Shown here in pieces: positions 17,421-18,218 of a stretch of 37,322 bases of DNA (position 1 is the stretch's first letter; every line of letters starts with the position of its first letter). Made by a program: the position numbers and the translations under genes. Source of the DNA: a virus (taxonomy: Duplodnaviria; Heunggongvirae; Uroviricota; Caudoviricetes); IMG/VR virus record IMGVR_UViG_2908567220_000001, positions 1 through 37,322 of that record; one strand, given 5' to 3'. The notes under the pieces were generated by a model that made no database searches, was not told where the DNA came from, and saw only the letters and a program-made list of their open reading frames with translations.

Positions 17421-17489
17421 AGCCTCACCTCCGCAAATAACGGATGGCGTAGTTTTACACTGAGAAATGAAAGGGATTTGAAAAGAAAA

Positions 17490-17505
17490 GCCCGCAAAAG
17501 CGGGC
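17490..17505 (-). terminator. rho-independent terminator hairpin (GCCCGC-TTTT-GCGGGC plus U-tract on minus strand)
   Basis: Perfect 6-bp GC stem, 4-nt loop, followed on the minus strand by TTTTCTTTTC; between tRNA-Gly and the holin. Confidence 0.6.
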
Positions 17506-17712
17506 GAAACAATATATACAGTAAGGAAAGCACTCTATCCAACAAACCACCCACAGTTAATCGGAATAAAAGCAGAGTGCTTATGAATGATCGCCTGCCC
17601 GAAGGTTAGTATTTCTGCACAGCAATTTTGCTAAAAAAAGCGATCATTCATAACTTAAACGTCTTTCAGTCACTCCGGGATTTCCCATCATCGCAGACTG
17701 AAAGACTCTAAC

Positions 17713-17787
17713 TGGAGCGGGCAGCGGGAATCGAACCCGCATCATCAGCTTGGAAGGCTGAGGTAATAGCCATTATACGATACCCGC
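17713..17787 (-). tRNA. tRNA-Gly (anticodon UCC)
   Basis: 75-nt cloverleaf on minus strand: acceptor GCGGGTA/TGCCCGC, anticodon stem TCAGC/GCTGA, loop CTTCCAA, T-loop TTCGATT, 3' CCA encoded. Confidence 0.85.
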
Positions 17788-17790
17788 ATA

Positions 17791-17866
17791 TGGTGCCGAC
17801 TACCGGAATCGAACTGGTGACCTACTGATTACAAGTCAGTTGCTCTACCTACTGAGCTAAGTCGGC
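17791..17866 (-). tRNA. tRNA-Thr (anticodon UGU)
   Basis: 76-nt cloverleaf on minus strand: acceptor GCCGACT/AGTCGGC, anticodon stem ACTGA/TCAGT, loop CTTGTAA, T-loop TTCGATT, 3' CCA; 3 nt from tRNA-Gly. Confidence 0.85.
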
Positions 17867-18113
17867 ATTGGTTCTTCAGGGGAGCGATATCACCGAGCAA
17901 AGAAGAGTTCCCCCTCAGAACCGTTTTCGATGATACAATTTAATATTCCAATCGCAACAACACTTTGCGTCAAGCTATGTAAATTTATTTATGTATTTTT
18001 ATTTTATGTGAACATTTCACCTTCACTTAAAATATACGCGACAATATATAAACAAATTTATTTTGAAGGCAATATTAAATGTCGTTTCTTATATCACACC
18101 ACAATAACAACAA

Positions 18114-18133
18114 AACCCGCTTGATGGCGGGTT
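18114..18133 (-). terminator. tR'-like hairpin downstream of the putative late promoter
   Basis: AACCCGC/GCGGGTT 7-bp stem with 6-nt loop, followed on the minus strand by TTGTTGTT; between Q stop and the tRNAs. Confidence 0.45.
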
Positions 18134-18218
18134 CTATTAAAGTTTAATTGCGCTTGATTCGCCTCGCGATACAGCTTTGCGAAGCGTAGCAAAATTGAAG
18201 CAGTTTATGCGTAAAAAA

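Follow-up and report, generated by a model that had tools for sequence, protein, structure and literature searches.

Independent promoter-gene-terminator units lodged between conserved modules of lambdoid phages are known as morons, and in the Shiga-toxin (Stx) phages the tRNA genes ileZ-argN-argO lie between the late promoter and terminator, pR′/tR′, and stxAB. In the phage 21 genome the order is Q21, pR′ (with its −35 beginning 6 nt after the Q stop), tR′, tRNA-Asn(GUU), tRNA-Thr(UGU) and the S21 holin gene. Genes for tRNA-Thr and/or tRNA-Asn have been reported downstream of Q in SfI, Sf6, ST64T, PS3 and P21, with a bias towards ACA codons in SfI (PMC3636060). A tRNA 3′ external transcribed spacer (3′ETS) of 53 nt, 3′ETS-leuZ, is a small RNA (sRNA) sponge in E. 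coli (Lalaouna et al. 2015, summarised in PMC8166272). Here we examine a 37,322-nt stretch of viral DNA (IMG/VR record IMGVR_UViG_2908567220_000001; hereafter the window), a lambdoid prophage at the rac site, and within it the interval 17421–18218, which lies between a Q-like late antiterminator gene and the holin gene and encodes tRNA-Thr(UGU) and tRNA-Gly(UCC). Our scans, folds and codon comparison are computational and use sequence data only. On balance, the interval is probably a self-contained stable-RNA cassette in the late-leader cargo slot of a Rac-site, phage-21-like lambdoid prophage, equipped with its own promoter and terminator and read through by Q-modified polymerase in lytic growth. 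The organisation, and not the tRNAs themselves, is what may matter, as tRNAs placed after Q have already been described for phage 21, SfI and their relatives. The novelty is modest and lies in three features suggested by the sequence: a promoter-like site and the autonomy it would confer, an undescribed trailer RNA, and a tRNA pair that appears to act as an exchange joint.

The interval between the Q-like gene and the holin

The interval exactly fills the space between the upstream gene, which ends in TGA (18221–18219), and the holin ATG at 17420. The original prediction placed two adjacent minus-strand tRNAs here, downstream of a Q-like gene and a tR′-like hairpin and upstream of a strong terminator and the holin, and each of these elements was recovered. 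The tR′-like hairpin (18139–18108) folds at −17.4 kcal/mol (z −4.05), and the cassette terminator hairpin (17505–17490) with its U-tract at −13.7 kcal/mol (z −4.78). The same prediction equated the gap with the slot that carries cargo in related phages, a parallel that is established knowledge for the Shiga-toxin phages, and the relatives of this prophage bear it out. Rac-SA53, a Rac-site phage with a homologous Q gene, has the pertussis-like toxin genes eplBA between Q and the holins; vB_EcoS-666R9 has the same Q module, no cassette and a 189-aa open reading frame (ORF) in the slot; other relatives carry a TerB-like gene there. In phages with the same Q module, homology stops at 18106, just past the tR′ hairpin, and the slot shows presence/absence polymorphism, with the 189-aa ORF, eplBA or the cassette following the same Q module.

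No protein-coding cargo was found between tR′ and the holin in the window. The interval contains no minus-strand ORF of at least 60 aa, and its sole ORFs, of 45 aa (GTG start, minus strand) and 64 aa (plus strand), are both unsupported. The earlier description of the slot as holding only about 290 bp of non-coding DNA is therefore right as regards coding capacity but incomplete, because the 292 bp between the tRNAs and the holin carry a conserved three-hairpin RNA (about 180 nt, directly after tRNA-Gly) and a terminator. The tRNAs and this trailer are apparently the cargo themselves, with what looks like their own promoter.

ARAGORN finds exactly two tRNAs in the whole window, both on the minus strand, and both score far above the Rfam RF00005 gathering score of 29 bits (Table 1). 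The tRNA-Thr is identical to K-12 thrU at 76 of 76 positions. The tRNA-Gly matches glyT at 74 of 75, the single change (C6 to U) giving an acceptor pair U6•G67. The elements that we take to be recognised by threonyl-tRNA synthetase (G1-C72, C2-G71, G35 and U36) and glycyl-tRNA synthetase (U73, the first three acceptor pairs, C35 and C36) are intact as judged by sequence, since the tRNA-Thr equals thrU and the sole difference in the tRNA-Gly, at 6:67, falls outside the identity positions. The base U6 sets the prophage tRNA-Gly apart from host glyT and provides a direct experimental handle. Both tRNAs are single-copy, low-abundance species in K-12; tRNA-Thr(UGU) with a modified U34 also reads ACG, and tRNA-Gly(UCC) reads GGA and GGG. 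This tRNA-Thr/tRNA-Gly pair is already annotated in many RefSeq E. coli genomes and in several phage records, and the tRNA genes themselves are an ordinary, known arrangement.

The source of both tRNA sequences is the host thrU-tyrU-glyT-thrT-tufB operon. Identity with the host covers a further 2 nt on the 5′ side of thrU and 1 nt on its 3′ side, and 2 nt on the 5′ side of glyT. One reading of the 3-nt spacer, TAT, is the 3′ flank of thrU (1 nt) joined to the 5′ flank of glyT (2 nt), left over after deletion of tyrU and its spacers; this reading as a host-operon remnant is suggestive, and few bases underlie it. A search for remnants of the host operon thrU-tyrU-glyT-thrT found none beyond the tRNAs and their 1–2 flanking nt. 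Compared with the operon, the cassette lacks tyrU, the 116-nt spacer and thrT, and its promoter, leader and trailer are unrelated.

The locus has the same order and strand as the late leader of phage 21, with a Q21-like antiterminator, a terminator hairpin, two tRNAs including Thr(UGU), and an S21-type dual-start holin. However, the tRNA-Thr(UGU) of phage 21 is unrelated in sequence, whereas the window’s tRNAs are thrU/glyT copies; the same anticodon has thus been installed at this slot at least twice independently. Phage 21 also has no detectable promoter, 240-bp AT-rich spacer, H1–H3 trailer or cassette terminator. The likeness to the Stx phages is that tRNAs for rare A-ending codons occupy a Q-to-holin slot that also holds toxin cargo, and that longer array relatives of the window include CAU and UCU tRNAs. 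In contrast to the Stx phages, the window has no toxin gene after the tRNAs, its anticodons are different, and it carries a promoter-like site of its own together with a structured trailer and a terminator.

The 235 nt after tRNA-Gly fold with a minimum free energy of −82.1 kcal/mol (z −5.3) into three long hairpins, H1–H3, and the terminator. A sensitive BLAST search recovered a trailer that is 76–82% identical in phage HK639, again between a Q-like gene and holins, where it comes right after the 3′-terminal 44 nt of a tRNA-Gly(UCC) that has lost its 5′ half; the HK639-type trailer occurs in 53 further viral contigs. When eight sequences were folded together with RNAalifold, 64 pairs were predicted, 11 of them double-changed, and 95.1% of cells pair, as opposed to 41–48% when the partners are slid. 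The covariation score of this alignment (0.243, against 0.065–0.127 in controls) was reached in 0 of 500 shuffles. Across 43 distinct full-length variants, 98.9% of cells pair (controls 42–48%), with 10 compensatory pairs compared with 0–4. The loops GUCUGCGAUGAUGGG, GCAAAAUUGCUGUG and GGGUGGUUUGUUGG are at least 95% conserved, more so than the stems, and the terminator stem covaries with respect to the HK639 clade (GCCCGC/GCGGGC versus CCUCGC/GCGAGG). These patterns of substitution indicate that the trailer structure is conserved via compensatory changes and, because many of its pairs are G•U, that the structure belongs to the sense-strand RNA.

Of 5426 complete E. coli genomes, 536 contain the trailer, and no annotated feature underlies it in any of the E. 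coli records listed. A comparison of 17527–17712 with Rfam 15 gave no match with E below about 6, and a literature search with fragments of the trailer sequence found no paper. The prophage sRNAs PasA and PasC adjoin holin genes in EPEC, enteropathogenic E. coli (PMC8550237); no site in the window matches their probe sequences (PMC8550237 supplement) with 3 or fewer mismatches, and PasA lies antisense to its neighbours.

By position, the trailer is a tRNA 3′ETS (17712–17480, about 220 nt), lying between the last tRNA and the operon terminator. It shares this placement before an intrinsic terminator with 3′ETS-leuZ, and it likewise would be released by tRNA processing; it differs in being prophage-borne and in its length of about 220 nt with three long hairpins, versus 53 nt, and the two are likened by position and not by sequence. 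Our best guess is that the trailer may serve as a regulatory or sponge RNA of the 3′ETS type. A broader proposal, which we put forward only tentatively, is that H1–H3 constitute a new phage-borne structured RNA family, the 3′ spacer of a prophage tRNA operon, made from its own promoter in lysogens, released by tRNA processing and acting in trans, for example as a sponge or sRNA that depends on Hfq or as a decoy for a protein. If true, about 10% of E. coli strains would carry an unrecognised regulatory RNA that arrived with two tRNAs.

Upstream of the tRNAs lie a candidate sigma-70-like promoter and a predicted leader hairpin. Copies of the tRNA pair in viral contigs have diverse upstream flanks, and we compared the promoter-like motifs of 22 such flank classes. 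In 17 of the 22 the best proximal match has TATTAT or TATCAT as its −10 element, and 17 of the 22 place the motif at one of two distances, either 9–10 nt before tRNA-Met in arrays that begin with tRNA-Met (Met-first) or 58–67 nt before tRNA-Thr in those that begin with tRNA-Thr (Thr-first). Matches of at least 9/12 occur in 11/22 proximal regions, against 3/22 distal and 1/22 antisense regions. Four diverged Thr-first classes have an invariant −35 TTG and −10 TATnAT, 7–9 nt before the leader hairpin. The architecture of this hairpin (GGUUCY, a 2×2 GA loop and a G-rich stem) is predicted alike in all four, and its basal pair 6 covaries (U-A, U•G and C-G). Met-first arrays carry TTGCAA-17-TATTAT-CCTGCGCCC 9 nt before the tRNA, with a GC-rich, discriminator-like sequence, and this motif looks much like host stable-RNA promoters with a GC-rich discriminator. 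Positional conservation across the classes lends weight to a promoter site that otherwise does not rise above chance.

The leader gave no credible Rfam match at a permissive threshold. Its tip includes a 13-nt unit (CTCGGTGATATCG, 17885–17897) that occurs once in the window and as three tandem copies in strain EC1722-1, and the two extra units account for the 26-bp length difference between the otherwise 99.9% identical loci.

We propose that the cassette consists, in minus-strand order, of the sigma-70 promoter (17957–17930), the leader hairpin, tRNA-Thr, tRNA-Gly, the three-hairpin trailer and the terminator. In a lysogen, the cassette would be transcribed from its own promoter and halted at its own terminator, which would keep the holin silent. 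After induction, Q-modified polymerase from pR′ would pass both tR′ and the cassette terminator, and the cassette would then also become part of the late transcript that runs into the lysis and morphogenesis genes. Processing by RNase P and RNase E-type activities would free both tRNAs, and the gene dosage of two host single-copy isoacceptors would be doubled. Translation may benefit, as these tRNAs would read ACA/ACG and GGA/GGG, which prophage genes use at about twice the ordinary host frequency and 5–10 times that of highly expressed host genes. The trailer would be freed as a stable, structured 3′ external spacer RNA. A promoter-like site with a terminator downstream would make this a promoter-payload-terminator unit, that is, a moron with an RNA payload, and the strong terminator between the tRNAs and the holin would be accounted for as the element that closes a Q-independent unit. 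The cassette resembles the morons of lambdoid phages in its promoter-like site, its terminator and its presence or absence at one slot among phages sharing the flanking modules, but its payload is RNA only (two tRNAs and a structured RNA) and not protein.

Table 1. Elements of the interval and its flanking genes in window coordinates; all lie on the minus strand.
Feature	Position	Strand	Basis and details
Q-like late antiterminator gene (DUF1133 family), probable	18219..18761	-	Pfam DUF1133 354 bits; stop TGA 18221-18219
Late promoter pR′, putative	18194..18222	-	-35 TTGATT 18222-18217 overlapping Q stop; 17-nt spacer; -10 TTCAAT 18199-18194
tR′-like intrinsic terminator hairpin	18108..18139	-	Core stem AACCCGC/GCGGGTT at 18133-18114, then UUUUGUUGUUAUU; terminator scan
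Cassette promoter, sigma-70-like, candidate	17930..17957	-	-35 TTGCGA 17957-17952; 16-nt spacer; -10 TATCAT 17935-17930; predicted start about 17923
5′ leader hairpin, predicted	17870..17922	-	Basal stem GGUUCU/AGAACC; 2×2 GA/GA internal loop; G-rich/C-rich stem; variable tip
tRNA-Thr(UGU)	17791..17866	-	ARAGORN (tgt at position 34); Rfam RF00005 73.8 bits; CCA encoded
tRNA-Gly(UCC)	17713..17787	-	ARAGORN (tcc at position 34); Rfam RF00005 63.4 bits; CCA encoded
Trailer hairpin H1	17661..17706	-	Apical GUCUGCGAUGAUGGG...CCCGGAGUG at least 95% conserved; two pairs double compensatory; 97% of cells pair
Trailer hairpin H2	17581..17653	-	14-bp outer stem and inner small hairpins; GCAAAAUUGCUGUG conserved; three to four pairs double compensatory
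Trailer hairpin H3	17530..17580	-	Apical GGGUGGUUUGUUGG conserved; three pairs double compensatory
Cassette intrinsic terminator	17480..17505	-	GCCCGC-UUUU-GCGGGC, then UUUUCUUUUC; 60 nt before holin Shine-Dalgarno; terminator scan
Class II (S21-type) holin, 71 aa	17205..17420	-	Pfam Phage_holin_2_1 121.5 bits; dual-start motif M-K-S-M; first gene after cassette

This organisation has implications beyond the single prophage. Here an RNA-only insert, apparently self-transcribed, fills the slot in which related phages hold Shiga, LT-II-associated and pertussis-like toxins, and this insert includes a conserved, unannotated structured RNA found in about a tenth of complete E. coli genomes. Should the cassette be active in lysogens, prophages would shift the host tRNA pool in favour of the A-ending rare codons typical of horizontally acquired and virulence genes and would add a new stable RNA to the cell, and the tRNA pair would offer a concrete homology patch for swapping late-region modules, including toxin cargo.

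Codon usage and exchange at the tRNA pair

We compared codon usage in 34 ORFs of the window with that of ordinary and highly expressed K-12 genes, ranking the 61 codons by excess. Relative to ordinary K-12 genes, the whole prophage is enriched in ACA (12.5 versus 5.1 per thousand, rank 3, p = 2e-5) and GGA (13.2 versus 6.8 per thousand, rank 8, p = 5e-4), and ACG follows at rank 9. ATA, AGA and AAA, at ranks 4, 5 and 6, are the codons of the extra tRNAs in longer arrays (CAU, probably Ile2; UCU; UUU), the CAU tRNA being one that resembles ileX. The excess list for the whole prophage therefore fits the anticodons of the array and its longer relatives, namely UGU, UCC, UUU, UCU and CAU. When the late genes are set against ordinary genes, ACG stands at rank 2 (23.5 versus 11.4 per thousand), GGG at rank 9 and GGA at rank 14. 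The differences are larger against ribosomal and elongation-factor genes: 23.5 versus 2.8 per thousand for ACG (8-fold), 16.7 versus 1.6 for GGG (10-fold) and 10.9 versus 0.9 for GGA (12-fold).

A codon-usage relationship of the kind anticipated by the original prediction thus exists, but it is general across the prophage, whereas that prediction had tied the tRNAs to the ACA and GGA codons of an AT-rich gene. The AT-rich ORFs use ACA at 31 and 17 per thousand. A specific link to them is nevertheless unsupported, because GGA is high in just one of the two (16.6 versus 3.4 per thousand), early and recombination genes are equally enriched, these ORFs lie on the strand opposite to the cassette, and the tRNA pair occurs in at least 22 upstream contexts. 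An IS5 element lies between the two ORFs.

In the tail region of the window, a lambda-type slippery heptamer, G GGA AAG (3896–3902, minus strand), lies at the end of the tail chaperone G ORF (3878–4300), in the frame expected for a G/GT −1 frameshift. The tRNA-Gly(UCC) supplied by the cassette is the species that would read the GGA in this heptamer; that this might affect frameshifting is pure speculation.

To see how the tRNA pair is distributed, we scanned IMG/VR for the Thr-Gly junction, which returned at least 120 contigs, and compared about 119 phage copies; the pair is kept in well over 150 viral contigs. Among the matches listed, 56 arrays are Thr-Gly alone, 39 are Met(CAU)-Lys(UUU)-Thr-Gly and 14 are Met(CAU)-Arg(UCU)-Thr-Gly, with a few odd variants, and the spacer is TAT in 115 of 119 copies. 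The flanks fall into at least 22 unrelated upstream and at least 9 downstream classes. Species-representative genomes with the pair are those of E. coli and Shigella flexneri (three copies each), E. albertii, E. ruysiae and Citrobacter braakii; it also appears on a 423-bp low-coverage contig of a Corallococcus assembly.

Variation within the tRNAs is itself informative. Among the roughly 119 copies listed, the 6:67 acceptor pair of tRNA-Gly is C-G in about 65, U-A in about 46 and U•G in 6, and a T-stem pair has changed from G-C to A-U in 3. The anticodon arms of these copies are nearly invariant, being changed in 5/119 tRNA-Thr and 2/119 tRNA-Gly. Stem-compensating changes together with near-invariant anticodon arms are, at the sequence level, the pattern expected of functional tRNAs under structural constraint.

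The two bases of the 6:67 pair track different flanks. G67 is linked to the window’s downstream flank in 48 of 48 cases and A67 to the alternative flank in 43 of 49, and U6 is linked to the window’s upstream flank in 20 of 20. Within that upstream class, 18 loci combine U-A with the alternative downstream flank, and the window and EC1722-1 are the only ones to have U•G with the window’s downstream flank. Because U6 of the upstream class and G67 of the downstream class are combined in the window, its cassette is best read as a recombinant with a crossover inside the conserved tRNA pair. Flank switches coincide exactly with the tRNA edges, and the window’s holin is also found after other arrays. 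These linkages argue that the conserved tRNA pair is a joint for late-region module exchange, a point that we present as new.

Related loci add further variants. Phage HK639 (NC_016158, 2945–3225) retains the 3′ 44 nt only of tRNA-Gly(UCC), which match the window at 44 of 44 positions beside a trailer of just the lower identity given above; this contrast suggests that recombination, with either host glyT or other phages, has homogenised the tRNA part repeatedly. In phage SerU-LTIIb (KU052038), the annotated tRNA-Arg(UCU) at 6404–6476 has a thrU-type body with three changes, including G35 to C in the anticodon, and looks like a tRNA-Thr that has become a UCU reader through an anticodon shift. 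Several viral contigs likewise have Arg(UCU)-Gly arrays. The second position of the four-tRNA arrays of related loci is occupied by one phage-type scaffold (CCGCCACTAGCTCATC...) with the anticodon UUU (Lys) or UCU (Arg). The same scaffold also occurs with shortened or odd anticodon loops, called Phe(aaa), Leu(taa), Stop(tta) or ‘???’ by ARAGORN, and these versions may be decaying or unusual tRNAs.

Competing readings of the interval

Several observations weigh against an autonomous cassette. The window alone gives 3 promoter sites where 2.2 are expected by chance, and the 9/12 match of the candidate promoter is not above chance. In phage 21 the tRNAs come directly after tR′, too close to accommodate a promoter, and none was detected there by the scan; given this layout, late-only expression is the simplest model and the ancestral one. 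The late genes show no enrichment of ACA (6.0 versus 5.1 per thousand), and ACA and GGA are most strongly in excess in the early, recombination and AT-rich genes, whose expression precedes the late transcript or does not depend on it. The compensatory changes in the trailer mostly distinguish only two clades and represent few independent events, and the figure for its adjacency to tRNA-Gly, with 80 of 102 copies starting no more than 8 nt from an intact tRNA-Gly 3′ end, is partly biased by how the loci were collected. The trailer is no more complementary to the start region of the holin, to the leader or to the tRNAs than shuffled controls are. In addition, the host-identical tRNAs could owe their uniformity to gene conversion and not to selection, as the contrast between the tRNA half and the trailer of HK639 illustrates.

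The alternative that survives best, although we consider it rather unlikely, is that the tRNAs are late-leader passengers without a promoter of their own, made only when Q-modified pR′ polymerase passes tR′, and that the terminator and hairpins are extra barriers that silence the lysis genes when Q is absent. The tRNA-Asn of phage 21 starts right after the annotated tR′, with no promoter-like site at that place; four terminators are annotated in HK639 between its Q gene and the holin; and the promoter match in the window is modest, all of which a passenger model accommodates. It does not readily explain why −35 TTG and −10 TATTAT are kept at a fixed distance from the first tRNA over many unrelated flanks, or why the TATTAT-CCTGCGCCC of Met-first arrays places a GC-rich, discriminator-like sequence 9 nt before the tRNA. 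Furthermore, barriers alone leave unexplained both the H1–H3 loops, with their conservation of at least 95%, and the tight attachment of the trailer to tRNA-Gly.

The tRNAs might instead be a neutral relic of host DNA, kept uniform by recombination with thrU/glyT and serving as a mere homology patch for module exchange. The sequences are identical or nearly identical to those of the host, the TAT spacer is readable as the host flanks of a deleted tyrU, the flanks change exactly at the tRNA edges, and the U6/G67 combination is the signature of a crossover inside the pair. However, a neutral relic would not be expected to show compensatory changes that maintain stem pairing, retention in well over 150 viral contigs across so many upstream and downstream classes, an unrelated tRNA-Thr(UGU) in the same slot of phage 21, or anticodons that fit the codon excess. 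A role as a recombination joint is compatible with function and no replacement for it, and we regard strict neutrality as improbable.

A third possibility concerns the trailer, which could be a cis-acting antiterminator RNA of the put type that lets polymerase read through the following terminator or terminators into the lysis genes. Tandem stem-loops do stand immediately upstream of one terminator here and of several in HK639, a phage that we take to belong to a group using RNA-mediated antitermination. The put RNA of HK022, a nascent element of two hairpins, suppresses termination (PMC9378689). Against this, these phages encode a Q protein for that job, an upstream promoter combined with a put-like element would make the holin constitutive and hence lethal, put sites lie in early operons, and the trailer hairpins are longer than those of put and three in number; we give this reading very little credence. 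Least probable of all is that the tRNAs are an anti-defence supply replacing host tRNAs cut by anticodon nucleases during infection: the longer arrays of relatives do include tRNA-Lys(UUU), a known target of such nucleases, and phage tRNAs that evade them have been described, but nearly all of the roughly 119 copies listed have the same anticodon stem-loops as the host and would be cut likewise, so that only dosage would help, and we know of no E. coli nuclease that targets Thr(UGU) or Gly(UCC).

Prophage setting and other features of the window

The assignment of the window to the rac site rests on intR, xisR, ralR with the RalA RNA, recET and kilR, and ttcA adjoins the near-identical locus in strain EC1722-1. 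The RalA antitoxin RNA (35587–35766, opposite ralR) gives a full-model match of 219 bits, which confirms a Rac-type left arm. On the minus strand the gene order is DUF1367, YbcO, DUF1133, the tRNA gap, a P21-type class II holin, YdfR, lysozyme, Rz, terminase, and lambda-like head and tail genes. Among complete E. coli genomes, none covers at least 80% of window positions 6000–30000, and the prophage is therefore a mosaic.

The DUF1133 gene upstream of the interval is a probable, not proven, Q-like antiterminator. Its product scores 26.8 bits against the Pfam family Phage_antitermQ, barely above the cut-off of 26, and its homologues carry the source names ‘antiterminator’, ‘Antitermination protein Q’ and ‘Late gene regulator’. 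A sequence-only search of the PDB gave nothing significant for this protein. With an AlphaFold2 model of low confidence (predicted local distance difference test score, pLDDT, 59), the top 8 Foldseek matches in the PDB are all phage 21 Q (probability 0.97–1.0, E 0.07–0.4); coming from a weak model, these fold matches are a hint only.

The point at which Q-sharing phages with other cargo lose homology (18106) requires a Q-specific promoter to lie upstream of it, and we infer the placement of pR′ accordingly. The −35 TTGATT of this candidate is kept in the Rac-SA53 Q module, which is 79% identical. The promoter scan missed the site because its −10 has no A2. The tR′-like hairpin moves together with the Q module in other phages. 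The leader between the Q stop and this hairpin (18104–18199, minus strand) gave sub-threshold Rfam matches, to STnc370 (30.4 bits versus 54), to attenuator-type leaders and to OrzO-P, on which we do not rely; this segment could be an equivalent of the short pR′-tR′ RNAs that act as sRNAs in other lambdoid phages. On the other side of the interval, homology with phage 21 resumes at 17453, and the holin DNA is 85% identical to phage 21 S.

Elsewhere in the window, an AT-rich island on the plus strand (20302–23975, GC 0.33–0.37) comprises a 292-aa ORF, an IS5-type DDE transposase (21221–22201) and a 483-aa ORF. The 292-aa ORF (20302–21180) has weak HSDR_N/PD-(D/E)xK-like matches only, and the 483-aa ORF (22524–23975) has no family match. 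At the position of this island, EC1722-1 has different genes, including one for a nucleoid-associated protein. An IS3-family insertion (27204–28417) in the early/replication region contains two overlapping ORFs and an ALIL frameshift pseudoknot (Rfam, 119 bits). Finally, a segment of about 1.2 kb between the small terminase gene and Rz (13820–15024, GC 0.41–0.47) has no ORF of at least 70 aa on either strand, and the equivalent place in related prophages holds trkG.

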